Below, piece after piece: positions 1 through 10,827 of a stretch of DNA of 10,827 bases. The stretch comes from Nitrososphaerota archaeon (GTDB lineage Archaea; Thermoproteota; Nitrososphaeria; Nitrososphaerales; UBA57). The stretch spans positions 1-10,827 of the forward strand of contig JACAFS010000034.1 in assembly GCA_013378385.1 (NCBI GenBank), written 5' to 3'. Within the stretch, counting starts at the first letter, position 1; every line of letters starts with the position of its first letter. Under the pieces are notes generated by a model that was given only the letters and a program-made list of their open reading frames with translations, was not told where the DNA came from and did no database searches. The position numbers were made by a program, and so were the translations under genes.

Positions 1-307
1 CAAGCCTTGTGGCTACAACGACCCAGGATATTGCTCCCATTAGAGCGGCAAGAATTAAATATTCAGTAACAATTTCGGGATTAATAATTCCCTTTCCAAT
101 GGTATTAGCTACTGCTACCCCAAAACCAAATGCTGCTGCAAAATTCCAAAAAGCAGCCCACAATACAGCATGAAATGGCTTCAATACCTTTGTAGAAACG
201 ATGGTGGCAACAGAATTTGCTGCATCATTCATTCCATTCCAAAAGTCAAAAATAAGTGCTACAACTACTATACCAGAAATAAGGAAAAAAAAGCTATCGT
301 AAATCAA
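1..307 (-). CDS. pitA: Inorganic phosphate transporter, PiT/PHO4 family (N-terminal part only; the gene runs off the left edge)
   Basis: Absent from the ORF track because the window edge truncates it. Minus-strand translation from TTG (307-305) gives (M)IYDSFFFLISGIVVVALIFDFWNGMNDAANSVATIVSTKVLKPFHAVLWAAFWNFAAAFGFGVAVANTIGKGIINPEIVTEYLILAALMGAISWVVVATRL. This contains the PiT signature FDFxNGxNDAANSxAT and hydrophobic TM helices. An in-frame TAA lies at 331-329, and TTG at 307 is the only canonical start before the conserved motif. The gene begins 7 nt after the stop (317-315) of the DUF47 gene, which is the classic DUF47-Pit pairing. Confidence 0.85.
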   Translation of the reverse strand, partial: MIYDSFFFLISGIVVVALIFDFWNGMNDAANSVATIVSTKVLKPFHAVLWAAFWNFAAAFGFGVAVANTIGKGIINPEIVTEYLILAALMGAISWVVVATRL

Positions 308-314
308 AACTAGA

Positions 315-938
315 TCACGAATATTTAGTTACAATATCTCGTAGAACGTCAGCTACATCTTCACAATAATCAACACTTTTTTCTAATTTTTCTAATATTT
401 CTTTGTGTTTAAGAAGTTCTTTAACATCGTCTATTTGAAAGATTTCAGAAAGGGTTACATCATGTAGATTGTCAGCTTGGTTTTCGTATGTATGAACATT
501 TATCACATGTTTTTCAATGGTTTTGCGATCCATAACTCGAATTAATTTAAGAGCGTTGTCTATTTCAGAAACAGATTTTTCAACTATAACAGGAAATGAA
601 GTCATGTATTCAAGTTTGTCTACAGGACGCATTAAATGCATTCGATTAGTAACATCCCAGATAGCGTCTAAAACATTATCATATAATATTGTAAGTTTAG
701 AAATATCTTCTCGATCTATCGGTGTAATAAAGGACTTGTCAAGCATAGTATAGATCTCATGTACAATTCTATCTCCTTCATGCTCCAAGTCTTCAATTGT
801 ACTTAACTTATTAGAATTATCAAATACGCTACTTAATTCAATGGATGCTATTCTAACTTTACTAGAGAGTTCTTCAAGTAAATCAAAAAATTTTGTTTCC
901 TGTGGAATTAATATATCCTTAATGCCCATTCTTTTCAA
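315..938 (-). CDS. PhoU-like phosphate transport regulator, DUF47/COG1392 family (Pit accessory protein)
   Basis: 207-aa acidic, all-helical ORF (KFFDLLEE... N-terminus, ...DYCEDVADVLRDIV C-terminus) typical of PhoU-divergent DUF47 proteins. It lies directly upstream of the PiT gene on the same strand. The track start at 938 is a TTG. The ATG at 929 (MGIKDIL...) is better spaced from the TATA-like CATATATG at 953-960, so the true start may be 929. Confidence 0.8.
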   Translation of the reverse strand: MKRMGIKDILIPQETKFFDLLEELSSKVRIASIELSSVFDNSNKLSTIEDLEHEGDRIVHEIYTMLDKSFITPIDREDISKLTILYDNVLDAIWDVTNRMHLMRPVDKLEYMTSFPVIVEKSVSEIDNALKLIRVMDRKTIEKHVINVHTYENQADNLHDVTLSEIFQIDDVKELLKHKEILEKLEKSVDYCEDVADVLRDIVTKYS

Positions 939-952
939 TTAAAAATAAATAA

Positions 953-960
953 CATATATG
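953..960 (-). promoter_or_regulatory. TATA-like box for the DUF47-pit operon
   Basis: Palindromic CATATATG spans about -24 to -31 relative to the ATG at 929. The same spacing is seen at other genes in this window, consistent with leaderless or short-leader archaeal transcripts. Confidence 0.4.
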
Positions 961-972
961 CTTATCACAAGG

Positions 973-990
973 GATATATAGATATATACT
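973..990 (+). promoter_or_regulatory. Tandem TATA-like boxes (GATATATA x2) for the AbrB-PhoU gene
   Basis: An exact 8-nt direct repeat GATATATA occurs at 973-980 and 981-988. The second copy spans about -25 to -32 relative to the ATG at 1013. Confidence 0.45.
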
Positions 991-1012
991 ATAACCATAT
1001 GGTAAAATATAG

Positions 1013-2065
1013 ATGTTTAAGCGTAAAAATGTAGAAAATCACTCTGAAATGAGAAAAATACAATATTCCGGAAAATCATCGTTTACTCTTGCACTGCCAA
1101 AAAAATGGGTTATAAATCAAAAATTAAAGGCTGGAGATCAGTTATCTGTAACCACAGACGGTACAAATAATTTAATATTATCTTCTGAAAAGAAAAAAAC
1201 TTATGTCAAAAAGCAAACAAACATTCTACTCGATGAAACGAGTGAAAAAGGACATATAGAACGAAAGATTATTGCGACGTATATTTCGGGATACAATCAG
1301 ATTCACATACGAAGTAAGCATAAAAGAATGACGCCGCAACAAAGATCAATCATAAAGAAGTTAGTGCGCGATAAGCTAGTTGGGACAGAGATAATAGAGG
1401 ACTCGAACTTGATTATTTCTATACAAGTAATTCTAGATCCGTCAGAGCTTAATATTGAGAATACGTTAAGAAGAATGTCTGTCATCACACAAGGAATGCA
1501 CGGTGACATAATTTATGCAATAAAGAAACACGATATTGAAATGTGCAAGGAGATTATTAGAACAGACGATGACGTAGATAGATTTGGTCTTTATGTAATA
1601 CGACAATTACGATTTTCTTTAGAGAATGATAACTCATTAGAGTTAGCAAATTCGGTTGATAAAATCTACTGTCTAGGTTATAGGATGATAGCGAAGAGTT
1701 TAGAAAGGATTGCAGATCACGCGAGTTTAATGGGACAGCAATTAATGAGTTTGAATAAACCATTGCCAAAATCCATAGTAGTTCAATTGGATGAATTTTC
1801 TGAGTTTTCAAGAGGGAATTTAGAAAAGTCCATGAGAGCGTTATTGAATAAAGACTACAAGCTTGCCGACAAAGTTGTTACTACTTGTTTGGAAGCTCCA
1901 AAGAAGGAGCTAAAGATTTTGAACTCAGATTTCAAGATGACTAAGGATCAAGATGCATGTGTAGTCTCTATATTGGAGCATATTAGGCGTGTGTCGGATT
2001 ATTCGGCGGACATTGGCGAAGTGGTATTAAATCTGACAATCGATGAGAACTTGAAAAAGCAGTAG
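1013..2065 (+). CDS. phoU: Phosphate uptake regulator, N-terminal SpoVT/AbrB DNA-binding domain fused to a tandem PhoU domain
   Basis: 350-aa ORF. The N-terminus RKIQYSGKSSFTLALPKKWVINQKLKAGDQLSVTTDGTNNLIL is a swapped-hairpin AbrB-type motif. The remaining roughly 220 aa are helical with PhoU-like repeats (e.g. ERIADHA..., RRVSDYSADIGE). This architecture is common in archaea. The gene is divergent from the DUF47-pit operon. Confidence 0.85.
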   Translation: MFKRKNVENHSEMRKIQYSGKSSFTLALPKKWVINQKLKAGDQLSVTTDGTNNLILSSEKKKTYVKKQTNILLDETSEKGHIERKIIATYISGYNQIHIRSKHKRMTPQQRSIIKKLVRDKLVGTEIIEDSNLIISIQVILDPSELNIENTLRRMSVITQGMHGDIIYAIKKHDIEMCKEIIRTDDDVDRFGLYVIRQLRFSLENDNSLELANSVDKIYCLGYRMIAKSLERIADHASLMGQQLMSLNKPLPKSIVVQLDEFSEFSRGNLEKSMRALLNKDYKLADKVVTTCLEAPKKELKILNSDFKMTKDQDACVVSILEHIRRVSDYSADIGEVVLNLTIDENLKKQ

Positions 2066-2075
2066 AATTATTTTT
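2054..2075. terminator. Candidate bidirectional oligo-T terminators between convergent genes
   Basis: The convergent stops lie only 2 nt apart (2065 and 2068). A T5 run on the + strand at 2071-2075 follows the phoU stop. An A5 run at 2054-2058 (T5 on the minus strand) follows the arsC stop. Archaeal termination typically uses oligo-T tracts. Confidence 0.3.
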
Positions 2076-2490
2076 CTGATTTGGAGAGTTCCTGAAGCAA
2101 AATATCGACTTTTTCTTTAATTACATCCCTGACTTCTCTGAATTTTTCAATGGGATGAGAAACAGGGTCTTCTATCATCCAATCTTGCGTTTTTGGGATA
2201 AAAGTAACTGGGCAAAAATCTGATGCCATGCACCCCATGCTGATAATTACATCTGCTTCAGACATCATTTCATCGGAAAGAATCTTTGGGTCGGAATGAT
2301 GATCTATATTTAATTCCTTCAAGACTTCCAACGCAGAAGGGTTTACATCGTCTGCTGGAACGGTACCTGCGCTAGCAGCGGTTGCATCGACTGCATAGTT
2401 AGATGCAAGTTCGTTAAACAGAGCCTCGGCCATCTGGCTACGGCATGAATTTGCAATGCAAACAAACAGTACATTAATTTTCTTTTTCAT
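2068..2490 (-). CDS. arsC: Arsenate reductase, thioredoxin-coupled ArsC / low-molecular-weight phosphotyrosine phosphatase family
   Basis: 140 aa. The P-loop is CX5R at the N-terminus (VLFVCIANSCRSQMAE: C11...R17). A second Cys pair follows a hydrophobic strand (IISMGCMASDFCPV: C87, C93), as in the pI258/Bacillus ArsC C82/C89 relay. The DP motif and FREVRD helix (IEDPVSHPIEKFREVRDVI) are present. Confidence 0.75.
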   Translation of the reverse strand: MKKKINVLFVCIANSCRSQMAEALFNELASNYAVDATAASAGTVPADDVNPSALEVLKELNIDHHSDPKILSDEMMSEADVIISMGCMASDFCPVTFIPKTQDWMIEDPVSHPIEKFREVRDVIKEKVDILLQELSKSEK

Positions 2491-2530
2491 TCCTTGAGGA
2501 TTACAAATCAGTACTAATAGAAATATATTG

Positions 2531-3154
2531 TTATATTTGTGAGAGTTTTGACCTTATGAAACCAATTGCTACGAATGCTCCAGCCGTACTCATCAAGATG
2601 TTTTTTGAAAGAGAGAATACCCAGATTCCAACTACTCCAATATCAGATGTAAGAACTGAGATCTCGCTAAATGAAAAGCCTATAGCGAATAGACCGGCAG
2701 TAACGATTGCGGATTCTGCAGCTCCACTTAACATGGAACCAATCACTATCATTTTGTTAGAGATTGCATTTTTTGCATAATCTCCGCGTCGTAACCAGAA
2801 TTCATAGACTAGACCTGCGCCAATGGAACCTGGAAGGTAAAGATAGGAAGCAGGGGCAGGAACCATGAGCAGTAGTAATCCACTGACTATACTGAAGACT
2901 AATGGTCCGTTCTGTGTTCTCAGTTGGGAAGCAATAAGAACCATACAGAATGCACGGAAGAAATGTGCGCCTGAACCTCTCAACAAAGGACCAATTGTTG
3001 CAGAAACAACATAAGATAAGACAAAATATACAGCTGTAAACATTGTAGCGTATGCAATGAGTTTGACTCGTGAAGTTTTTAGACTAGTGGCATTAGAAAA
3101 TAATTCCATAACAAAACTATTCAATATTGTATTCAAACAATCACCATGATTCAA
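2531..3154 (-). CDS. Uncharacterised polytopic membrane protein (about 6 TM; loosely resembles an ECF-transporter S component)
   Basis: The ORF has six hydrophobic segments (e.g. VKLIAYATMFTAVYFVLSYV, GPLVFSIVSGLLLLMV, MIVIGSMLSGAAESAIVTAGLFAIGF). I recognise no diagnostic motif. The track start at 3154 is TTG, and the first ATG is at 3109 (MELFSNATS...). No TATA-like box lies at the usual spacing for either start, so the gene is probably co-transcribed with FTR1, 40 nt upstream. Confidence 0.6.
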   Translation of the reverse strand: MNHGDCLNTILNSFVMELFSNATSLKTSRVKLIAYATMFTAVYFVLSYVVSATIGPLLRGSGAHFFRAFCMVLIASQLRTQNGPLVFSIVSGLLLLMVPAPASYLYLPGSIGAGLVYEFWLRRGDYAKNAISNKMIVIGSMLSGAAESAIVTAGLFAIGFSFSEISVLTSDIGVVGIWVFSLSKNILMSTAGAFVAIGFIRSKLSQI

Positions 3155-3194
3155 TCTAGATAATAAAGAATTTTCGGATTTTCAAAATTGATTA

Positions 3195-4076
3195 TCAATA
3201 ACTTGCAAACGTTTTACGGTAGAAACGTCCTGCCCACGCCCAATAGCTAAGATATCCTATAACACGAATCCATTCAGGATTGCCATCATAACCAAGTAGG
3301 GCCTTGAACCAAACGCCTATCGCTCCCTTTTCATGAAGAGGATGTGATTTTTCAGCTGGATTAATGTCCCAGGCATAAGAGAACAAGAAGTTTGTTGGTT
3401 CTCCGTCGGCGTCATAACCAACTCCAGCGTATTCAGCTGCTTCGACTAATTCATGTAGTCCGTAGCCAAATAGACCTGCTGCAAATACTATTAATATTAA
3501 ACTGGTATATTTGAAGAATTTTCCAATATCCAAATTGTAAATTTGTCTTTTAGCTGCAAGTGATAGAACTAATGCAACAACAACTGCAAGAATTGAACCA
3601 ATTATTGTACTACCGATATCGATTGAAAGTAATGGAGCAAGGAAAAGAACTGTCTCTAGTCCTTCTCTGGCCACTGCAACGAATGCGAGGAACACTAAAG
3701 AGTTTGCGGATTGTGAAGTAATGGCAAAGTCCATCTTGGATTCAAGTTCGCCCTTCATTGAACCAGCGTGTTTAGCCATCCAGATAATAACATAAGATAA
3801 TACGAGTGTAGCAGAAATAGAAGCGACTCCTTCGAACATTTTCTCCCAGAATCCCGCTAATTCACCTAGAAGTATTATAATTCCTCCACCTAAAACTAGG
3901 CTCAGTGCTATCGCACCGATAGTACCATAAGCTAGATATTTTTGATATTCTTTATTGTTGGTTTTATCCAAATAAGCCCACATGATACCAACAATCAACG
4001 CAGCCTCAATTGACTCACGGAGTACGACTAGGAATGGCGCTACAAGCGCAGATCCGATTGATATTCCGTCTGTCAT
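3195..4076 (-). CDS. High-affinity iron permease, FTR1/EfeU family
   Basis: 293 aa, about 7 TM. Both hallmark RExxE motifs lie in TM helices: LRESIEAALIVG (res 19-30) and VAREGLETVLFLAP (res 135-148). The conserved C-terminal region LLGYDGNPEWIRVIGYLSYW resembles bacterial EfeU. Confidence 0.9.
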   Translation of the reverse strand: MTDGISIGSALVAPFLVVLRESIEAALIVGIMWAYLDKTNNKEYQKYLAYGTIGAIALSLVLGGGIIILLGELAGFWEKMFEGVASISATLVLSYVIIWMAKHAGSMKGELESKMDFAITSQSANSLVFLAFVAVAREGLETVLFLAPLLSIDIGSTIIGSILAVVVALVLSLAAKRQIYNLDIGKFFKYTSLILIVFAAGLFGYGLHELVEAAEYAGVGYDADGEPTNFLFSYAWDINPAEKSHPLHEKGAIGVWFKALLGYDGNPEWIRVIGYLSYWAWAGRFYRKTFASY

Positions 4077-4097
4077 ACAGCAAGTTAATAACGGACG

Positions 4098-4105
4098 TTA
4101 TATAA
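4098..4105 (-). promoter_or_regulatory. TATA box of the FTR1 operon
   Basis: Palindromic TTATATAA spans -22 to -29 relative to the FTR1 ATG (4076). Confidence 0.5.
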
Positions 4106-4155
4106 GGTTCACGATGTAAATAAAAATATGTTAACAGCGTGAATTAACAACAAAT

Positions 4156-4164
4156 CTATATATC
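4156..4164 (+). promoter_or_regulatory. TATA box of the HTH/erythrin-like regulator gene
   Basis: CTATATATC spans -23 to -31 relative to the ATG at 4187. Confidence 0.5.
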
Positions 4165-4186
4165 GTAAATCAACAATAACTAGTCT

Positions 4187-4915
4187 ATGCAAAAAATGAA
4201 AAATGTTGAACAGATTCTACCTGCAGTTAGATCGTTGTTGGCAAAGGAATTAATCCAGAGTCATAATGTAACAAAGGCAGACGTTTCAAAGATATTGGGA
4301 ATATCTCCTGCTGCGGTAACGCAATACACAACAAACAAGAGGGGAAATTACGCTGATGAACTTGGAAAGAACCGCGAGGTTAGACCCGTAATCGCAAGTC
4401 TTGCTGAGCATTTTTCAAACAAGAAGAAGAAAGAAGGAGAAATGAGGAGGAACATGACGATTATTGAGACTTCGGAAAATATACTTGCCATTATTAACAA
4501 TCAAGGAATCAAGGATAAAGAAAAAAAGATGGATCCTAATACTAGGATTCTGCAGGACAGAGTTGAAGCTGAACTTCATGAGGCAAGAACGAGTTTGAGT
4601 ATGGCAAATAAGATAGAAGACGGTTTTGGAAAACTGCTCTTCAAAGGAATTGCGTCAGACAGTATCCGACATGCAGAGATAGTTTCTCAGGTAATCAGAG
4701 ATCAAGAGACAGTTGGCAGTTTCAGATTAGATAAACAATCAAAGAGATATCTAAAACAGATGATTCAAGAGGAAGAGAATGCCAGTGAACAGTTGATGGT
4801 TAAATTAGTTAAGACAAAACATCCAGCGGTCCGTGCTTTGCTGCAGTCAATCGACCAAGATGAGATGAAGCACAAAAAGATGCTGAGATCTCTCAAAAAG
4901 TATCTAGAAGCCTGA
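4187..4915 (+). CDS. Putative transcriptional regulator: N-terminal helix-turn-helix (COG2522-like) fused to a C-terminal rubrerythrin/ferritin-like four-helix domain
   Basis: 242 aa. The HTH is VTKADVSKILGISPAAVTQYTTNKRG (res 28-53). A Lys-rich linker follows. The C-terminal roughly 125 aa consist of four predicted helices with erythrin-type ligand patterns: VEAELHE (res 126-132), DSIRHAE (158-164, degenerate), QEEENASE (194-201) and DEMKH (225-229, canonical ExxH). Confidence 0.65.
   Translation: MQKMKNVEQILPAVRSLLAKELIQSHNVTKADVSKILGISPAAVTQYTTNKRGNYADELGKNREVRPVIASLAEHFSNKKKKEGEMRRNMTIIETSENILAIINNQGIKDKEKKMDPNTRILQDRVEAELHEARTSLSMANKIEDGFGKLLFKGIASDSIRHAEIVSQVIRDQETVGSFRLDKQSKRYLKQMIQEEENASEQLMVKLVKTKHPAVRALLQSIDQDEMKHKKMLRSLKKYLEA
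4874..4899 (-). terminator. Candidate terminator of the propeller operon, embedded in the 3' end of the convergent regulator gene
   Basis: On the minus strand, just after the TAG stop (4906-4904), there is a T5 run (4899-4895), then the 10-nt palindrome TGAGATCTCA (4884-4893), then a second T5 run (4878-4874). Confidence 0.35.
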
Positions 4916-6328
4916 CTTTCTTAGCATAATAATAGCTGACAATACGCACAATGATGTTCCTATTAGAAATATAGGATCAGTAAGTCCAGTAGAGATTTCC
5001 ACCTCTACAAAGGAACCAGTGTAATAACTCAGATCCATAGTTGCAGCCCCGATTGTCAGGTGTGTTATGCCTGTAGGAAGGTTCCTGGCCGCTTGTACAG
5101 AATAGGATACGATTGTTTTGGCTGAAGGGTCGCTGTGTGATGGGGTAAATTCAACAGTTATTCCATCAAGAATACCTGTCACACGTTCGTTTCCACGTGC
5201 AAGGAAGAAGACGTCAATTTCGGAAAACAAGTTAAACTGTGTTGTTGTGGATTGGGGCCTGCTAACAACGATTCTGTTTGAGTCGAAAATGATATTTGTC
5301 GGTTCGGGAATTTGTGAATTGAAGAATCCAATTTTGTTCTCGTTTCTTTCTACGAACCATATGTTTCCGTTAGAGTCTGAGGTCAAGGTTTGTGTGAATG
5401 TATTGTCGGTCGGAATCTTGAACTCGGATATTGAATTTGTTTGAGGGGATATTTTGATTAATCGATCTGCTCGGAATTGCGTTGTCCATATGTTGCCGGC
5501 GTTGTCACTGATTATCTGGTATGTTCCTGCAGTAAGTGTTCCTGTTGCATACTCCGTAATTTCATTTGTATTTGGATTAAGTTTTCCGATGAGGCTTGTT
5601 CTGAATTGGCTGTACCAGATATTACCGTCGTTGTCAATTGCAAGTCCAATTGGATTCACGGTTTCACTTCCGACTCCGTCACTTGGAAGAATAAATTGCG
5701 TAAATTCGTGTGTATAAGTGTCAAATTTTGTCAGAATTCCAGGGCCGGATTCAACAAGCCATATGTTTCCGTCTTTATCAAATTCAAAATAGCTTGGACT
5801 GGAGATGTTTGACGGAATCCTGTATTCGGTCAGAGAATTTACATCATTTATCTGCACACTTGTAAGAAAACTGCGTCCGAATTCCGTGAACCATAATGTA
5901 CCTTCGTTATCGAACTTCAAATCCCAAGGCAATGAATCATCTTCGAGTTGAAGAAATTCGTTGAATTCGCCTGTTTCTGGATCCAGAGTCCTTATCTTAT
6001 TCTCTGTAGCATCAGTGAACCAAATCATTCCATCAGGGCCTACCGTTATCCCCCACATCTGAAGTGTTTCTTGATAGAAATAACGCTCTTCAGGTGGATA
6101 GAGATGATAGGTAGTAAAATTCGAGGTTTCTGTGTCAAAATGCACGATTGAGGGATTTAGACGCTGAGTAAACCATATGTCTTTATTGTGGGCAGTGATT
6201 GCATACGGATTGATGAAAGTTCCGTTTGTAGGAATATCAAATTCTGTTATTGGACTTTCTTGAGCAAAGATAGGTTCTACAAGGAAGAATAACAGAAAGA
6301 TGGTTGAGAGAAATATTATATTTTTCAT
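4904..6328 (-). CDS. Membrane-anchored extracytoplasmic 7-bladed beta-propeller, streptogramin lyase (Vgb, COG4257)-like, with a C-terminal beta-sandwich-like domain and TM anchor
   Basis: 474 aa. The signal peptide is MKNIIFLSTIFLLFFLVEPIFA|QE. Seven repeats of about 42 aa carry the motif D..GN(I/L)W(F/Y)T(E/Q)...(N)KIG. These are followed by about 100 aa rich in beta-formers, then the TM anchor IFLIGTSLCVLSAIIML and the tail RKSGF. The start lies 14 nt after the stop of the upstream gene and has no TATA of its own, so co-transcription is likely. Confidence 0.75.
   Translation of the reverse strand: MKNIIFLSTIFLLFFLVEPIFAQESPITEFDIPTNGTFINPYAITAHNKDIWFTQRLNPSIVHFDTETSNFTTYHLYPPEERYFYQETLQMWGITVGPDGMIWFTDATENKIRTLDPETGEFNEFLQLEDDSLPWDLKFDNEGTLWFTEFGRSFLTSVQINDVNSLTEYRIPSNISSPSYFEFDKDGNIWLVESGPGILTKFDTYTHEFTQFILPSDGVGSETVNPIGLAIDNDGNIWYSQFRTSLIGKLNPNTNEITEYATGTLTAGTYQIISDNAGNIWTTQFRADRLIKISPQTNSISEFKIPTDNTFTQTLTSDSNGNIWFVERNENKIGFFNSQIPEPTNIIFDSNRIVVSRPQSTTTQFNLFSEIDVFFLARGNERVTGILDGITVEFTPSHSDPSAKTIVSYSVQAARNLPTGITHLTIGAATMDLSYYTGSFVEVEISTGLTDPIFLIGTSLCVLSAIIMLRKSGF
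5315..6250 (-). repeat. Seven tandem protein-level blade repeats (Vgb/NHL-like)
   Basis: The blade cores are NKDIWFTQ, DGMIWFTD, EGTLWFTE, DGNIWLVE, DGNIWYSQ, AGNIWTTQ and NGNIWFVE, spaced about 40-45 residues apart. The repeats are diverged at the DNA level. Confidence 0.7.
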
Positions 6329-6342
6329 GCAAGTTTTCTCAT

Positions 6343-8688
6343 TTAATTAGAACGATTTTTTCTAACGACATACATAGAGAAGGCAATTGCAATCACAGCA
6401 ATTCCCAATGAAACTATGGAAAGAATGTTTGGATTTGTTTGAGATGTCTGTGTATTTTCTTCAGAACCGTCAGCTAGAGTATATGCTTGTAATATTCCTG
6501 TAGTTCTTTGGCCGAATTCACCTGCGCCACCGCTAGTTATGAAAAGTGTAGCTTGTCCATACGCATTGGAACCTATTGAGACTCCAGCGCCACCTAATCC
6601 GCCAGTAGTAAATATTCTAAGTAATTCTCCTGTCTCTTCGTCGACTGCATGAATCTTTCCGAGTCGATCAGGCACAAAGACTATTCCTCCACTTGTCGTA
6701 ACTGCACCGTATTGGTTTCGATTTTCCATTTCGTAAACCCATTTTACTCGTCCGTTGGATGCGTCGATAGCATATAATGAAGCGTTGCCAACGTGGAATG
6801 AATCAAAATACATTGGTCCAGCAACGTGATGGAATATATCAGCTTCTCCATCTTTGTATGGAGCTCCTTCTTCCTCTATGTAAGAAGTACAGAAGGTTTG
6901 TGTTACAACGTAAATCGTATTATGTGCAAATGCAGGGGCTGCATCAATGCCTCCTTGGAATCCAGGACATACTGGTTTACGAATTAGATTATCTTGAGAA
7001 AGTTCCATGTCGGCGTTGTTTCCCATATCGGCCTGTTGTGTGTTAATTGCAGGAGGGCCTACCCGAATGGATTCGTAGATAGGTTTTCCTGTAGCTGCAT
7101 CAAGAACATGAACGAGGTTTGTCTTTGAGCCGACAATTACTGCTTTTTGTGTGCTATCGCCTGATTCAATTTCGGCAAGGATTGTAGACCAACGAGATTC
7201 GTGATAATAGATATCATGAGTTACAATTTGATAGTACCAGTTCATTTCACCGGTATTTGCGTTTAAGGATACAACAGATGAAGTGAAGAGATTTGGTCCG
7301 GGTCGCATGTCGCCAGGAACGTCAGGTGTAGGAGCATTTGTTGTAAAGAATATGTCGCCCGTATCTTCGTCCAAGGCAATAAGAGTCCATACACTGCCTC
7401 CTCCGATCCAATTACAATCGTGAAGTCCTTCCTTGTGTTCGTCGTGTCCTTCGTGTCCTTCTCCGTGTTCTTCAGCTTCATGTTCTTCGAATTCCTCGAT
7501 GCCAGATTCTATATCAGTAAGAATTGCAAGTAATTCATCAGTACTGGATATAGGACTAAGCATATCCTCTAGTTCGTGGACATGTTCTTCGACCTCATGC
7601 ATAATTTCAGTTAGATCATTTCCGTGAGGATGTTCAATTTCGTGTGTAACTTCGTCTACATGGTTTTCTATTTCAGAAACGATGCTCAAGATTTCGACAG
7701 CCATTCCCATATTCAGAGGAAGTCTAGAAGCTTTTTCCTCGAATTCATGAACGTTTGTTGCGATTTCAGCCATGATTGCAAGTAATTCTGCGGAATGTTC
7801 TTCTTCGTGTTCTTCTTCTGCTACTTTTTCACATTTTCCCCAATCCCAAGGATAATTGTCAAGGTTGCCTTTAGAAACTAAATCAGCTGCCCAGTCCTCT
7901 TCATTGCCTGTGGGTGGAATTGTTTCCCATCTCCAGACAAGTTCTCCGGTATCTTTATCATAAGCAGAAATGAATCCACGTTCTCCCGTGAAGCCTCCGC
8001 CTCCAGTAGGTCGTGTAATGAGAAGATTATTGTATTCAATTGGAGCAAAACTTGCCCAATATATTCCTGTGTTCCCTGGAATGTCTTTACATGTATCAGG
8101 AATGGTAACCAATACTTCACCAGTCATTGGCTCTAATCCGTATATTGTACAATCACTAGCTTGCATCCAAACTTTTTCATCAAAGTAATCTATGCCATGT
8201 TGGGCATACACTTTTGCCCACCAATTCTTTTCGTCGAATGAACCAATTGGTGCAGCAAAACGCCAAAGTAGTTGGCTGCTTTCTGCATTTAGTGCATAAA
8301 GCACATTGAATTCACTAGCAATGTAAACAATTCCGTTTACAACAAGTGGAACTGTTTGCACACCAGTAGGTACATGTGGCACCTCAAAATTAAAACCTCC
8401 TTCTCCATGTTCATGGCCGTCGCCTCCTACAGAAATAACTTCTCCAGGTACTCCGCCTCCGCTTCCCCAATAGCCAGGGACTTGAAAGATCCAGCGTAAT
8501 TCTAAATCGTCAATGTTGTCTTTGTTGATTTGTGTCTGTGGACTAAATCCTGTATTGGTTCGGTCGAATGCAGGGTGTTCCCAATTCAGACCTTCCATTT
8601 GTGCAGTAACCTGAAATATCGAAGACGGAATAAGCAATAAAAATATGAATAAGGTAGAAACTGTATAGATAATGTTATTATTTTTCAT
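6343..8688 (-). CDS. Membrane-anchored quinoprotein (methanol/ethanol dehydrogenase family, PQQ-like) 8-bladed beta-propeller carrying two His/Glu-rich insertions
   Basis: 781 aa. It has an N-terminal signal/TM segment (IIYTVSTLFIFLLLIPSSIFQVTAQ). MDH/ADH-family motifs seen by eye include NWEHPAFDRTNTGFSPQTQINKDNIDDLELRWIF, PLVVNGIVYIAS, AYDKDTGELVWRW and IGGGSVWTLIALDEDTGDIFFTTNAPTPD...MRPGPNLF...LNANTGEMNWYYQIVTHD. The C-terminal TM is ILSIVSLGIAVIAIAFSMYVV with tail RKNRSN. It is a clear paralog of the upstream 596-aa gene. Confidence 0.8.
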   Translation of the reverse strand: MKNNNIIYTVSTLFIFLLLIPSSIFQVTAQMEGLNWEHPAFDRTNTGFSPQTQINKDNIDDLELRWIFQVPGYWGSGGGVPGEVISVGGDGHEHGEGGFNFEVPHVPTGVQTVPLVVNGIVYIASEFNVLYALNAESSQLLWRFAAPIGSFDEKNWWAKVYAQHGIDYFDEKVWMQASDCTIYGLEPMTGEVLVTIPDTCKDIPGNTGIYWASFAPIEYNNLLITRPTGGGGFTGERGFISAYDKDTGELVWRWETIPPTGNEEDWAADLVSKGNLDNYPWDWGKCEKVAEEEHEEEHSAELLAIMAEIATNVHEFEEKASRLPLNMGMAVEILSIVSEIENHVDEVTHEIEHPHGNDLTEIMHEVEEHVHELEDMLSPISSTDELLAILTDIESGIEEFEEHEAEEHGEGHEGHDEHKEGLHDCNWIGGGSVWTLIALDEDTGDIFFTTNAPTPDVPGDMRPGPNLFTSSVVSLNANTGEMNWYYQIVTHDIYYHESRWSTILAEIESGDSTQKAVIVGSKTNLVHVLDAATGKPIYESIRVGPPAINTQQADMGNNADMELSQDNLIRKPVCPGFQGGIDAAPAFAHNTIYVVTQTFCTSYIEEEGAPYKDGEADIFHHVAGPMYFDSFHVGNASLYAIDASNGRVKWVYEMENRNQYGAVTTSGGIVFVPDRLGKIHAVDEETGELLRIFTTGGLGGAGVSIGSNAYGQATLFITSGGAGEFGQRTTGILQAYTLADGSEENTQTSQTNPNILSIVSLGIAVIAIAFSMYVVRKNRSN
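7414..7833 (-). other. Inserted His/Glu-rich helical module (res 286-425) bracketed by Cys286 and Cys425
   Basis: The paralog reads PGDWGENDLIGGGS where this protein reads PWDWGK-C[138 aa]C-NWIGGGS. By my count the insert holds about 16 His, 37 Glu, 7 Asp and only 4 Lys/Arg. It has an internal duplication (see findings). Confidence 0.8.
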
Positions 8689-8708
8689 TGAAATATTAAT
8701 AACTTAAT

Positions 8709-8718
8709 AATATATTAA
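8709..8718 (-). promoter_or_regulatory. TATA-like box of the 781-aa propeller gene
   Basis: An AT palindrome AATATATT/TTAATATA spans about -21 to -30 relative to the ATG at 8688, inside the 56-nt gap after the upstream paralog. Confidence 0.45.
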
Positions 8719-8744
8719 TATGATTTTTCTATCAGAAATAATGC

Positions 8745-10535
8745 CTAATTTTTCCTGTAGAATCTCAAGAATGCCAAATACAGTATTCCTACTATCGATG
8801 TAAGAGCTAGCGAACCAATTATACCACGTCGAGAAATGCCATCGTTGTCAGCAGTAGATTCTTCAGGTAGGCCTAATGCAGTTATAATACCTGATTTGCT
8901 TCCACCCGTTGCAACGAATAAACGCATATCACCATTGGCATCGGATGCAATTGTTACGCCAGTATTTCCTGCGCCATTCATAGGAATTTTTTTCAACACA
9001 TCGCCAGTTTCTGAATCAAGAGCGTAAAAGTTTCCAGATATGTCGACAAGATAAACGACTCCGCCACTTACAGTAATACCACCTTGATACCTGGACTCGA
9101 TTGGAAATGTCCATTTAATTTGGCCGGTGGAAACATCGATTGCATGAACTGTAGAGCTCTGTCCTGCCAATGAAGGTTCTATTCGAAAGCCATTAATCAG
9201 TTTTTCTTTGTAAGGAATCTGTCCTGCATTGAATTTCGAACAATAGTTTTGGCTTGCAACAAAGAAAGTGTCATCAGCGAATGCCGAAGTGCTGGCGGCT
9301 CCGCCGAAAGCTCCTGGACAGTATTCATTTCCCTCCAGAACATCCTGAGATAGATTCATGTCGGCATTGTTTCCTTGGTTGGTGTTGTATGCACTGATTT
9401 TTTGTGCGCCGAAACTTATAGGATTGTGTAGAAGTTCCCCTGTTGCGGCGTCTAAAACATATGCATAATCTCCTTTTGTGGATGCGAGTATTACTTTTCT
9501 TTCTTCTCCGTTTATTGTAGCATTAGCAAGAATCAATGAACGTGCTGGTTCATGACCGTTAATGTCATGAGGAGTTGTTTGATGGTACCAAATCATTTTA
9601 CCAGTATTCGCATCAAGAGCGACAATTGAATTAGAGTAGAGATTTGGACCTGGTCGAAGTGATGCATCATAAGCTAATGCAGGAGCGCCAGTTGGGAAAT
9701 AAATTATCCCAGTAGATTCGTCCACTGCTACCAAGGAGAATATCGAGCCTCCGCCAATGAGATCGTTCTCTCCCCAATCTCCCGGATACGGATTTATGTT
9801 TCCTTTTGCGGCATCCTTAAAATCCCATTCTGGATCTCCGCCACTTGGCGGGACAGAGAACCATTGCCACAAGAGTCTGCCATTAAACTCGTCATAACCA
9901 GCAATGAAACTTCTTCCGCCTCCTCCGCCTGCTGATACTCTGCTAATTATTATAGTCTCGAAAAATGTTGGAGAGTAATGCCCTACATACTTTCCTGAAT
10001 TACCTGGAACGTCGCTACATGTATTCAGTATCTCGTTTTTTACTTCGCCAGTGAATGGATCAAACGCAAAGATATGGCAGTCGTTTGTCTGCATCCACAA
10101 TAAATCATGGAAGAAACTGATAGAATGTTGCGCCTCCAGCATTGACCAGTCTTCAGAAAGTACAAGTTCGACAGGATCGTATTGGAATGTCCAGAGTTCT
10201 TCGCCGTTTAGTGTGTTAAGAGCTGTAAGTTTATTCGATTCAGTAACAAAATACAAGAGTCCGTATACAGCGATTGGTGGGGCATGTGTACCGAATGCCA
10301 TACGCGCTCCAGGGATTGGAGCTGGTCTTTCGGGTGATTGATAGATCCATTTCAGTTCTATATTTTGAACATTTTCCCGAGTTATAATTTGTTGAGGGTT
10401 GTGTGCAGAATTAAAAATATCAAAAGCAGGTTGTGTCCAGTTAATACCTTCAGGGGATTGTGAAATAGATTGAGGAATAAAGGTAAGCAAAAGAAGCGTC
10501 AACAGAATAGTGATAAATTTCATATTTTTTATCAT
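8745..10535 (-). CDS. Membrane-anchored quinoprotein (PQQ-like) 8-bladed beta-propeller, paralog without the insertions
   Basis: 596 aa. The signal peptide is MIKNMKFITILLTLLLLTFIPQSISQ. It shares the family motifs of the 781-aa protein: INWTQPAFD...ELKWIYQ, AGYDEFNGRLLWQW, IGGGSIFSLVAVDESTGIIYFPTGAP...LRPGPNLY...LDANTGKMIWYHQTTPHD, and NQGNNADMNLSQD...CPGAFGG. The C-terminal TM is IIGSLALTSIVGILYLAFL with tail RFYRKN. Confidence 0.8.
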   Translation of the reverse strand: MIKNMKFITILLTLLLLTFIPQSISQSPEGINWTQPAFDIFNSAHNPQQIITRENVQNIELKWIYQSPERPAPIPGARMAFGTHAPPIAVYGLLYFVTESNKLTALNTLNGEELWTFQYDPVELVLSEDWSMLEAQHSISFFHDLLWMQTNDCHIFAFDPFTGEVKNEILNTCSDVPGNSGKYVGHYSPTFFETIIISRVSAGGGGGRSFIAGYDEFNGRLLWQWFSVPPSGGDPEWDFKDAAKGNINPYPGDWGENDLIGGGSIFSLVAVDESTGIIYFPTGAPALAYDASLRPGPNLYSNSIVALDANTGKMIWYHQTTPHDINGHEPARSLILANATINGEERKVILASTKGDYAYVLDAATGELLHNPISFGAQKISAYNTNQGNNADMNLSQDVLEGNEYCPGAFGGAASTSAFADDTFFVASQNYCSKFNAGQIPYKEKLINGFRIEPSLAGQSSTVHAIDVSTGQIKWTFPIESRYQGGITVSGGVVYLVDISGNFYALDSETGDVLKKIPMNGAGNTGVTIASDANGDMRLFVATGGSKSGIITALGLPEESTADNDGISRRGIIGSLALTSIVGILYLAFLRFYRKN

Positions 10536-10546
10536 ATCTTTATATT

Positions 10547-10827
10547 ATGACCAGCAATAATAGTTTTGTGCGAAATTATATTATCATAGGCGTCGTTATT
10601 TTAGCTGCCATAGGTATTGGCTATATTTTGATTGGGAATGTAAACAGTCCTGAACAAAATATAAGCAGACCGGTAGTGGAAAAAGGATTCTTCAATGTAG
10701 AATCTGAACAAGAGATTGTACAGACGATGTTTGGTGAAAAAGTTGAAGCAAGATTTGTGCTTTCTTCAGAACTCGGTTTTGAATCAGATGTTAACTTCGT
10801 AATCAAGACTCCGTTGATTGGAGTGAA
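10547..10827 (+). CDS. Hypothetical protein with N-terminal signal anchor (5' part only; runs off the right edge)
   Basis: Absent from the ORF track because it is edge-truncated. The frame from the ATG at 10547 stays open to the window end: MTSNNSFVRNYIIIGVVILAAIGIGYILIGNVNSPEQNISRPVVEKGFFNVESEQEIVQTMFGEKVEARFVLSSELGFESDVNFVIKTPLIGV. It has one N-terminal TM helix followed by a soluble, acidic region. I recognise no family. Confidence 0.55.
   Translation, partial: MTSNNSFVRNYIIIGVVILAAIGIGYILIGNVNSPEQNISRPVVEKGFFNVESEQEIVQTMFGEKVEARFVLSSELGFESDVNFVIKTPLIGV

Follow-up and report, generated by a model that had tools for sequence, protein, structure and literature searches.

The window analysed here comprises 10,827 nucleotides (positions 1 to 10,827 of the forward strand of contig JACAFS010000034.1, Nitrososphaerota archaeon assembly GCA_013378385.1) and carries three consecutive genes whose products, named here p596, p781 and p474 after their lengths in amino acids, are membrane-tethered beta-propellers. 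The three genes constitute a conserved, co-inherited cell-surface module. Judged from their sequences, p596 and p781 are paralogs of long standing; they share the fold of pyrroloquinoline quinone (PQQ) alcohol and methanol dehydrogenases but have lost the quinoprotein catalytic apparatus, and it is doubtful that either deserves the 'PQQ dehydrogenase' label of the literature. The best reading of the cluster is a non-PQQ, metal-linked surface module, a proposal that we favour tentatively and that stands a greater chance of being wrong than right.

The question reaches beyond this locus. The heterotrophic marine Thaumarchaeota (HMT) are abundant in the dark ocean, and the energy metabolism proposed for them depends in large part on the label 'PQQ-dependent dehydrogenase', given to a family that occupies about 3% of the HMT genome and ranks among the most expressed genes. 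If a widely conserved pair of this family has indeed lost its catalytic machinery, the HMT metabolic model would need a paralog-by-paralog revision, and the links of the pair to NikR, to a copper protein and to a His/Glu-rich module would point to an unrecognised handling of trace metals at the archaeal cell surface.

Architecture of the cluster

The open reading frames (ORFs) of p596 (8745-10535), p781 (6343-8688) and p474 (4904-6328) all lie on the minus strand. In Pfam, p596 and p781 match the PQQ family PF01011 (6.6e-49 and 5.5e-52), the p781 match being broken into two stretches by an insertion, and p474 matches PF24684, Vgb_lyase (6.5e-40, 137 bits for a threshold of 50). Each protein contains one N-terminal and one C-terminal hydrophobic segment and none further (Kyte-Doolittle hydropathy > 2.0). 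The N-terminal segments correspond to signal peptides (residues 1-26 in p596) and the C-terminal ones to transmembrane (TM) helices, located at residues 570-593 of p596 (window 8757-8828), residues 751-777 of p781 (6358-6438) and window 4916-4987 for p474, each followed by a short basic tail (RFYRKN, RKNRSN and RKSGF, respectively). The same topology is common to all 21 family members of our alignment A1. All three proteins are exported, with the C-terminal helix anchoring them to the outer face of the membrane. An archaeosortase-type signal was rejected for the three C-termini: they match no NCBIfam CTERM model of archaeosortase/exosortase sorting signals at E <= 10, and a plain TM anchor is the best reading of each.

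The two PQQ-like proteins are paralogs of about 35% identity, and the extra length of p781 corresponds to a single insertion between residues 286 and 425. The p781 and p474 genes are separated by only 14 nt (6329-6342), a gap without room for a promoter, and they are therefore probably co-transcribed. The p596-p781 spacer (8689-8744, minus strand) extends over 56 nt and contains the AT-rich TATA-like stretch TTAATATATTATTAAG. A preliminary description of this DNA, made from its letters, had reported the three minus-strand genes of 596, 781 and 474 codons with their common signal, propeller, TM helix and basic tail, the two gaps with a TATA-like box in the longer one, and a probable single transcript for the last two genes; ORFs, Pfam matches, hydrophobicity and direct reading of the spacers bear it out on these points. 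At its 3' end, p474 converges with a helix-turn-helix (HTH) gene and the two overlap by 12 nt (window 4904-4915), an arrangement with which separate terminators do not fit.

Conservation of the gene neighbourhood

A scan at one genome per species retrieved 575 relatives; loci are cited below by L numbers and proteins by P numbers. In every lineage examined, the p596-like and p781-like genes adjoin each other in tandem, convergent or divergent orientation. Lineage A groups the window (= L001), L008, L101 and L090/L093, whose Vgb-like proteins are 86% (L008), 76% (L101) and 55% (L090/L093) identical to p474. Its gene order is constant: a cupredoxin gene diverges from p596, which is followed by p781 and the Vgb-like gene, the latter placed 5-14 nt after the p781-like gene in four variants (L090, L093 and L101 included). 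Lineage A also keeps an upstream block encoding a small Cys-rich protein, a Met/His-rich cupredoxin-like protein, a 463-aa membrane protein, eIF2-alpha and AglB. In lineage B (L007 and the freshwater locus L087), a NikR-like gene precedes the p781-like gene, which is convergent with the p596-like gene; a ZIP gene, an AztB/ZnuC-like ABC transporter and a His-rich YVTN propeller are found nearby in L087. In lineage C (L095), a Vgb-like gene (40% identity to p474) converges with a NikR-like gene lying downstream of the p596-like gene (79%), from which the p781-like gene (75%) diverges. The Vgb-like partner is hence present in lineages A and C and the NikR-like partner in lineages B and C, and since these partners are kept despite rearrangement, they provide good evidence for a functional linkage.

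About 40 other thaumarchaeal PQQ-like paralog loci show no Vgb-like, FTR1 or HTH neighbours, with the one weak exception of L034, where a Vgb-like tblastn match of 23% identity lies about 5 kb from the PQQ-like gene. Some partners are shared more widely: in L011 and L015, a cupredoxin gene adjoins a paralog of the canonical D[WM]D type, and the gene for the small Cys-rich protein adjoins several other paralogs. The proposal that the three propellers form a co-functioning extracytoplasmic set is upheld by the constant adjacency of the pair and by the presence of the Vgb-like gene in lineage A and again in the rearranged lineage C. The contrary prospect, that of a massively expanded and randomly placed surface-protein family, is correct as to the expansion, but the placement of the pair is not random.

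The NikR-like neighbour matches PF08753 and combines a ribbon-helix-helix N-terminus with a NikR_C domain, an HxH...C site and the upstream (trans) His, read directly as ...IKHNF...SHLHY...KKCLE...; it scores 46-73 bits on the NCBIfam NikR models for cutoffs of 83-175, which places it in the family and not among the equivalogs. In the literature, nothing relevant was found on NikR in Thaumarchaeota.

The interval between the two PQQ-like genes, which measures only 56 nt in the window, contains in L090 (3464-3691), L093 (8646-8873) and L101 (12329-12535) a small conserved ORF of 68-75 codons with a CxxC...CxxC zinc-ribbon motif, together with a second ORF of 46-53 codons.

The remodelled pocket of p596 and p781

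Hallmark residues were mapped by HMMER alignment to the quinohemoprotein alcohol dehydrogenase 1KB0, with the counting fixed on its Cys116-117, Glu185, Asn263 and Asp308 motifs. The mapping was repeated with the family profile against 1KB0 and XoxF 6DAM and with a MAFFT alignment of both to seven p596-group and 14 p781-group orthologs. Positions are given in MxaF numbering, in which Asp303 corresponds to Asp308 of 1KB0. The fold of both proteins is the eight-bladed PQQ alcohol dehydrogenase propeller, the family profile matching the quinohemoprotein enzyme and XoxF with E = 1e-65.

The catalytic hallmarks are replaced almost throughout. The Cys103-Cys104 pair is lost in all 21 sequences (S-M in p596, A-K in p781), as are the calcium/lanthanide (Ca/Ln) ligands Glu177 (Gly, Ala or gap; Gly in p596) and Asn261 (Ala, Ser, Ile or Gly; in p596, Ala or a gap depending on the alignment). 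The catalytic base Asp303 has become Gly in the seven members of the p596 group and Tyr, Phe, Val, Gln or His in the 14 of the p781 group. Across both groups, Glu55 is replaced by Gln or His (Glu persists in P0033 alone) and Trp476 by Gln. Other positions are maintained: the Arg331 equivalent is Lys in 20 of 21 sequences (Arg in P0035), the PQQ-stacking Trp243 persists in p781-group sequences and is Phe in those of the p596 group, and His304-Glu305 is kept in all but P0031 and P0033, which carry Ser or Thr at 305, so that this Ca/Ln position, Asp in XoxF, is Glu in 19 of 21. The resulting motifs read 'GHE' in p596 and 'YHE' in p781 ('xHE' across its group). An alternative polar set made of His109, His304-Glu305 and Lys331, plus Asp394 in the p781 group, thus occupies the pocket, and these His, Glu, Asp and Lys residues at former active-site positions are kept across orthologs that are 50-60% identical. 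Among 64 other thaumarchaeal paralogs, sister families keep a carboxylate at position 303, in the form of DHE (for example in the metagenome-assembled genome (MAG) ATL), EHE or XoxF-like D[WYF]D. This shows the loss to be a property of the p596/p781 pair in particular and not an artefact of alignment.

Curated models agree with this picture. On TIGR03075 (methanol/ethanol PQQ dehydrogenases), p596 and p781 reach 204 and 198 bits, below the cutoff of 480; they pass the broader PF01011 threshold, which denotes superfamily membership only. Their scores on TIGR04528, the acidobacterial 'empty quinoprotein' group A, are similar in level (182-192 bits) and far below its cutoff of 650. The pair shares the PQQ-dehydrogenase fold with this group, which is not known to retain the PQQ-binding residues, and differs from it by non-membership, by phylum, by its anchor and by its insertion. 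Compared with 1KB0 and XoxF 6DAM, it retains the eight blades, Lys or Arg at 331 and the stacking Trp, whereas Cys-Cys, Glu177, Asn261, Asp303 and the cytochrome c domain are missing and a C-terminal TM anchor is present, in line with the sub-cutoff TIGR03075 score. A canonical PQQ enzyme was rejected for p596 and p781 on the absence of these hallmarks.

The published view of the family would make p596 and p781 divergent PQQ dehydrogenases that oxidise extracellular alcohols or sugars and deliver electrons to a blue copper protein, with p474 acting as an SGL/lactonase-type enzyme on a product such as a sugar lactone. We regard this as rather unlikely for the pair, while noting that it has literature in its favour (PMC7300363; PMC13374868) and that the profile match to known enzymes and the retained Lys331 and stacking Trp speak for it. 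It is opposed by the replacement of Asp303, Glu177, Asn261, Cys-Cys, Glu55 and Trp476 in both ortholog groups, by the state of position 303 where sister paralogs keep their carboxylate, and by the report of only a pqqC/TENA-like gene for PQQ synthesis. The earlier suggestion of extracytoplasmic redox enzymes associated with a lyase-like propeller is likewise doubtful, as the pair is devoid of catalytic Asp, Ca/Ln ligands and Cys-Cys and p474 of the catalytic residues of Vgb.

The His/Glu-rich insertion of p781

The insertion of p781 (residues 287-424, window 7417-7830, minus strand) is bracketed by Cys286 and Cys425, one of three Cys pairs in the protein (180/200, 286/425 and 574/600), and sits directly before the strand bearing the stacking Trp. 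It contains 27% Glu and 12% His, with 17 ExxH/HxxE pairs, twice the 8.5 expected from shuffled sequences. AlphaFold2 predicts an up-down four-helix bundle (pLDDT 84.7, pTM 0.76). Helical-wheel analysis assigns the majority of the His and Glu residues to outer and flanking faces and Leu, Ile, Val and Met to the core, which makes a buried di-iron centre of the ferritin type unlikely.

The number of modules varies among close p781 orthologs. P0015, P0022 and L101 have only a His/Asp/Glu-rich loop of 15-22 residues, the window p781 a single module of about 120 residues and P0004 two, while P0001 and the 1207-aa ortholog of L008 carry four modules joined by GHGGHG-type linkers. No known family could be assigned to the insertion: the Pfam search yielded noise (E > 0.01), a profile search of 1.84 billion representative proteins matched its own family and a few His-free coiled coils only, and Foldseek against the PDB found generic four-helix bundles without a significant match. 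Copper storage proteins figure among these structural matches with TM scores of about 0.5-0.6, in our view no sign of homology.

A similar Glu/His-rich helical insert (…IVHELEEH…LVHELEE…VEHEHEHEEE) is found at another propeller position, residues ~470-590, in P0046, a distant PQQ-like paralog of 708 aa from a soil member of the Nitrososphaerales, and suggests an independent or mobile acquisition of such modules. In L001, a 27-kb scaffold matching the window at 99.6%, a 100-N gap (12743-12842) falls within the insertion (window ~7760-7795) and truncates the p781 gene call to 455 aa. Assemblies and gene callers evidently have difficulty with this repetitive stretch, so that the copy numbers of the module taken from public data may not be trustworthy.

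The Vgb-like propeller p474

The propeller of p474 spans residues 27-336 (window 5321-6250, minus strand) and adopts the seven-bladed Vgb/SGL fold; the uncharacterised residues 337-445 match no family. Vgb(A), translated from plasmid LR961926, was globally aligned with p474 and nine orthologs. The positions compared are Tyr18, His228, Trp243, Glu268, His270 and Glu284 in the numbering of the Vgb structure, and their residue types were confirmed in the aligned Vgb(A). The seven blades align in register with those of Vgb(A) (structure 2Z2N), and Glu284, a residue type that recurs in every blade, is kept in p474 and in 9/9 orthologs. Tyr18 is also kept, in the form of Tyr or Phe. The remaining lyase residues are replaced: His228 by Tyr in p474 (Tyr or Phe in the whole set), Glu268 by Phe in p474 and 9/9 orthologs, His270 by Gln (Gln or Glu) and Trp243 by Phe (Phe or Gln). 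p474 further differs from Vgb(A) by its extra C-terminal region and its TM anchor. On the curated Vgb models NF000022 and NF000096, it remains below threshold with 94 and 114 bits for a cutoff of 600. Streptogramin lyase was rejected for p474 on these replacements, and the protein is read from its alignment as a Vgb/SGL seven-blade fold without lyase residues. It also passes the SGL threshold of Pfam (PF08450, 43.3 bits, cutoff 26.3), a point in favour of the lactonase role mentioned above. The lactonase family is six-bladed and p474 seven-bladed. No relevant literature was found on Vgb-like proteins in this clade.

The top-face positions that we take, from the alignment, to surround the central pocket of p474 are Y, W, W, S, I, Y and Q, mostly aromatic. 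They favour the view that the cluster encodes surface proteins without catalytic activity, engaged in binding or acting as scaffolds in the manner of BamB-type propellers or of anchored solute receptors. Such proteins would capture organic compounds or organise the pseudo-periplasm, while the p781 module would serve as an acidic spacer or a cation-attracting surface and have no specific part in metal binding. The lack of namesake catalytic residues in all three proteins suits this explanation, together with the surface tethering and huge expansion of the family and with a module copy number that fluctuates among close relatives as in surface repeat proteins. The polar pocket residues conserved in p596 and p781 argue for a specific site instead, and the links to NikR, to the cupredoxin and to a promoter palindrome would stay unexplained; we consider the explanation unlikely.

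Distant bacterial Vgb-like propellers (P0144, P0148-P0151, P0153 and P0161) are fused to plastocyanin/cupredoxin domains, some of them under the JGI name 'streptogramin lyase/plastocyanin'. They constitute an independent hint that Vgb-like propellers work with blue copper domains.

The divergent cupredoxin and the upstream block

The cupredoxin gene starts 32 nt from the start of p596 and is transcribed divergently from it. It occupies the plus strand from position 10568 to the window end at 10827 and continues beyond; of its 227 codons, the 86 present in the window encode a TM anchor and the start of an N-terminal domain. The cupredoxin domain lies past the window end and shows a complete type-1 copper ligand set, H...C-x2-H-x3-M, read as ...VIHSV...(34 residues)...FCKPHPYMM. 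The protein matches PF13473 and PF00127; amicyanin is its best NCBIfam model with 37.8 bits for a cutoff of 110, hence not as an equivalog. The preliminary description had stated that the window held no cupredoxin; this is accurate for the domain and not for the gene, which the window end cuts.

The divergent arrangement with p596 is kept in L008, L101, L090 and L093. This amicyanin-like partner with its full ligand set counts in favour of the published view, as does its counterpart beside the canonical D[WM]D paralogs of L011 and L015. A known parallel is methylamine dehydrogenase with amicyanin, where an extracytoplasmic propeller gene also neighbours a small type-1 copper protein with a C-x2-H-x3-M loop. 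The present cupredoxin differs by its sub-cutoff score, its TM anchor and its additional N-terminal domain, and the propellers are not tryptophan tryptophylquinone enzymes.

The upstream block is also visible on L001 (6507-9968), where the cupredoxin appears TM-anchored with its extra N-terminal domain. The block encodes three further proteins. The first (124 aa) has a TM helix and 12 Cys; the second (267 aa) gives a weak cupredoxin-like match and contains the Met/His-rich stretches MGDMGDMNMD and EEEHGHEEEE; the third (463 aa) is a multi-TM protein predicted to start with His in its mature form. None of them received a family assignment. Homologs of the 124-aa protein (35-46% identity) lie near other PQQ-like paralogs of soil and hot-spring Thaumarchaeota and Caldarchaeum MAGs, in L018 (1859-2071), L019 (21038-21259), L033 (5486-5830), L036 (385-579) and L037 (4268-4477). 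This small Cys-rich protein may be a general partner subunit of the PQQ-like family.

A candidate operator upstream of p781

The spacer between p596 and p781 contains a TATTAA-N15-TTAATA palindrome (8694-8720), a candidate operator that coincides in part with the p781 core promoter. The pattern TATTAA-N14/15-TTAATA occurs once in the window for 0.02 expected by chance, and 4 of 200 shuffled sequences matched it. Among 101 loci, it was found only upstream of p781 orthologs, namely those of the window species, L008, L007 and L087/88/89, and in the promoter region of the L087 operon for a Zn-type ABC transporter. Its second half-site stands about 24-31 nt before the ATG in L008, L007 and L087, the place expected for a TATA box.

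In this part of L087 (3526-6774), the operon encodes an AztB/ZnuC-like permease and ATPase without a binding-protein gene. It diverges from a gene for a 480-aa YVTN beta-propeller with His-rich loops and the C-terminal sequence HEEHGH, and the shared promoter region contains TATTAA-N15-TTAATA at 5126-5152. By analogy, this pair may correspond to an AztD-like metallochaperone arrangement.

A proposed metal-linked surface module

If the cluster is a non-PQQ, metal-linked surface module, the p596/p781 pair would no longer perform PQQ/Ca-dependent dehydrogenation and would bind or handle a transition metal at its remodelled pocket. The disulfide-bracketed loop near the pocket-lining Trp would carry an expandable antenna of 0-4 His/Glu-coated four-helix bundles and (GH)n linkers. 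Expression would be controlled by metal through the neighbouring NikR-family gene and through the promoter palindrome shared with the Zn-type ABC transporter promoter of a relative. Electrons or metal may pass between the module and the amicyanin-like copper protein, and p474 may be a ligand-binding partner. The loss of the quinoprotein residues, the make-up of the insertion and the distribution of the palindrome speak for this reading, as do the metal-related neighbours: the NikR-like regulator, the amicyanin-like cupredoxin, the Met/His-rich protein and, in L087, ZIP and the AztB/ZnuC-like ABC transporter. Extracytoplasmic metal capture and hand-on is the task of AztD, a periplasmic beta-propeller zinc metallochaperone, and of the His-rich loops of ZnuA-type proteins. 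The His-rich YVTN propeller beside the AztB/ZnuC-like transporter of L087 recalls these systems; p596 and p781 belong to another propeller family, and no transporter is genetically fixed to the pair.

Several observations weigh against this reading. The link to metals derives wholly from sequence composition and gene neighbourhood, and in small, dense genomes some metal genes are expected nearby by chance. The syntenic L007 and L087 count as one evolutionary event for the NikR adjacency. In two loci of the same species, L001 and L004, a single-nucleotide polymorphism removes one half-site of the palindrome, which is absent altogether upstream of the p781-like genes of L090, L093, L101 and L095. 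Many p781 orthologs are without a module and p596 never has one. The cupredoxin neighbour would suit a redox enzyme equally well, PQQ binding remains compatible with the conserved Lys331 and stacking Trp (Phe in p596), and in the literature the family members count as highly expressed dehydrogenases.

In its most specific form, the proposal is that the PQQ-dehydrogenase fold has taken on a new task, in which a conserved heteromeric pair captures or hands off a transition metal at the cell surface, with a His/His/Glu(/Asp) site in the old funnel, an antenna of 0-4 bundles and NikR-type control via the TATA-overlapping palindrome; that all of this should hold together is improbable. Were it right, some of the most highly expressed 'dehydrogenases' of the heterotrophic archaea of the dark ocean would work in the acquisition of trace metals and not in energy metabolism.

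Host and relation to described proteins

Exact copies of the window proteins occur on many marine metagenome contigs, and NCBI assigns them to a 'Nitrososphaerales archaeon'. The closest genome (L008) is a marine 'Nitrososphaerales archaeon' MAG from station ALOHA, with a p596 homolog of 91% identity. The archaeal matches stem from uncultured Thaumarchaeota and Caldarchaeum MAGs, one of which has at least seven paralog loci, and no named ammonia-oxidiser genus appears among the names of 45 archaeal loci. Considering these names, the proximity of L008 and the identity of the family with the published HMT set, we rejected as unlikely the ammonia-oxidising host that had been contemplated earlier; the host probably belongs to a heterotrophic, non-ammonia-oxidising marine clade of Nitrososphaerales.

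The genomes of HMT (~1 Mb) encode 4-19 'PQQ-dependent dehydrogenases' per MAG, distributed over 21 families; most have a signal peptide and TM segments, all lack Cys-Cys, and they were proposed to pass electrons to quinone or blue copper proteins (Aylward and Santoro 2020, PMC7300363). In the same clade, PQQ-dehydrogenase genes were described "in adjacent pairs or trios" (Gagatemarchaeaceae paper, PMC10640624). The only PQQ-synthesis gene listed for it is a pqqC/TENA-family homolog (PMC7300363 supplement; PMC10640624), the corresponding orthologous cluster being present in 51 genomes of the comparison set (PMC7300363 supplement). The preliminary assertion that the cluster matches no characterised pathway is thus wrong at the family level, given the published HMT set and its adjacent pairs and trios (PMC7300363; PMC10640624).

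The window proteins and the HMT enzymes are of the same protein family, and the paralog locus L010 belongs to isolate ATL, a MAG name of PMC7300363. Both have a signal peptide and a TM anchor, lack Cys-Cys and occur in pairs or trios, and for both a transfer of electrons to blue copper proteins has been proposed. The pair differs by the lack of a DYD/DXD motif, of the catalytic Asp and of Glu177, by the orphan His/Glu module and by its coupling to a Vgb/SGL-like propeller, NikR or cupredoxin. These distinguishing features (motif loss, module and partners) are not described in PMC7300363 or PMC10640624. The protein family is consequently known already, while the degenerate pair, the orphan metal-type module, the degenerate Vgb-like partnership and the link to NikR and the palindrome appear to be undescribed.

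The FTR1 cassette and flanking genes

Downstream of p474, the window encodes a 242-aa regulator with HTH and ferritin-like domains (4187-4915, plus strand), an FTR1 permease (3195-4076, minus strand) and a membrane protein of 192-207 aa (2531-3154, minus strand). The permease contains the two REXXE motifs RESIE and REGLE, matches PF03239 (2.1e-47) and scores 182 bits on the EfeU model for a cutoff of 255, and is therefore not an equivalog. The propellers and the cupredoxin could in principle be a ferroxidase or iron-capture partner of FTR1, by analogy with Fet3/Ftr1 or FtrABCD. Such an iron-uptake accessory might be suspected from the FTR1 gene adjoining the trio in the window, L008 and L101, from the adjacent cupredoxin and from the ExxE/ExxH motifs of the Glu-rich module. 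We consider it very unlikely, because the cassette is not a constant companion of the trio. The complete cassette occurs in the window, L008 and L101. In L090 and L093, FTR1, HTH and membrane-protein genes are replaced by small ORFs and a GATase gene, with the trio and the LMWPc-PhoU-PHO4 flank remaining; lineages B and C are devoid of the cassette at the cluster as well. Conversely, FTR1 and HTH form a self-contained divergent pair without propellers in the unrelated context of L098/L099 (5018-6732). A functional link of the trio to FTR1 was rejected on these grounds, contrary to what adjacency in the window had first suggested, and FTR1 with its HTH regulator is a unit independent of the trio.

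The HTH protein family counts 75 clusters, the few source-named members being mostly thaumarchaeal. Its C-terminal helical domain carries invariant E129, D158...H162 (ASDSIRH), E196 and E226-x-x-H229, a ferritin-like pattern of di-metal ligands. The AlphaFold2 model (pLDDT 83.9) has no significant Foldseek match, the weak ones being mostly ferritin-like proteins. The divergent HTH/FTR1 arrangement in two unrelated contexts suggests a dedicated iron-sensing regulator of FTR1.

Further along, the interval 315-2490 of the window encodes an LMWPc phosphatase (ArsC-like), a PhoU protein of 350 aa and a PhoU_div/DUF47 protein, the PHO4 phosphate transporter lying beyond the window. This LMWPc-PhoU-PHO4 cluster adjoins the trio in all lineage A variants, with or without the FTR1 cassette.

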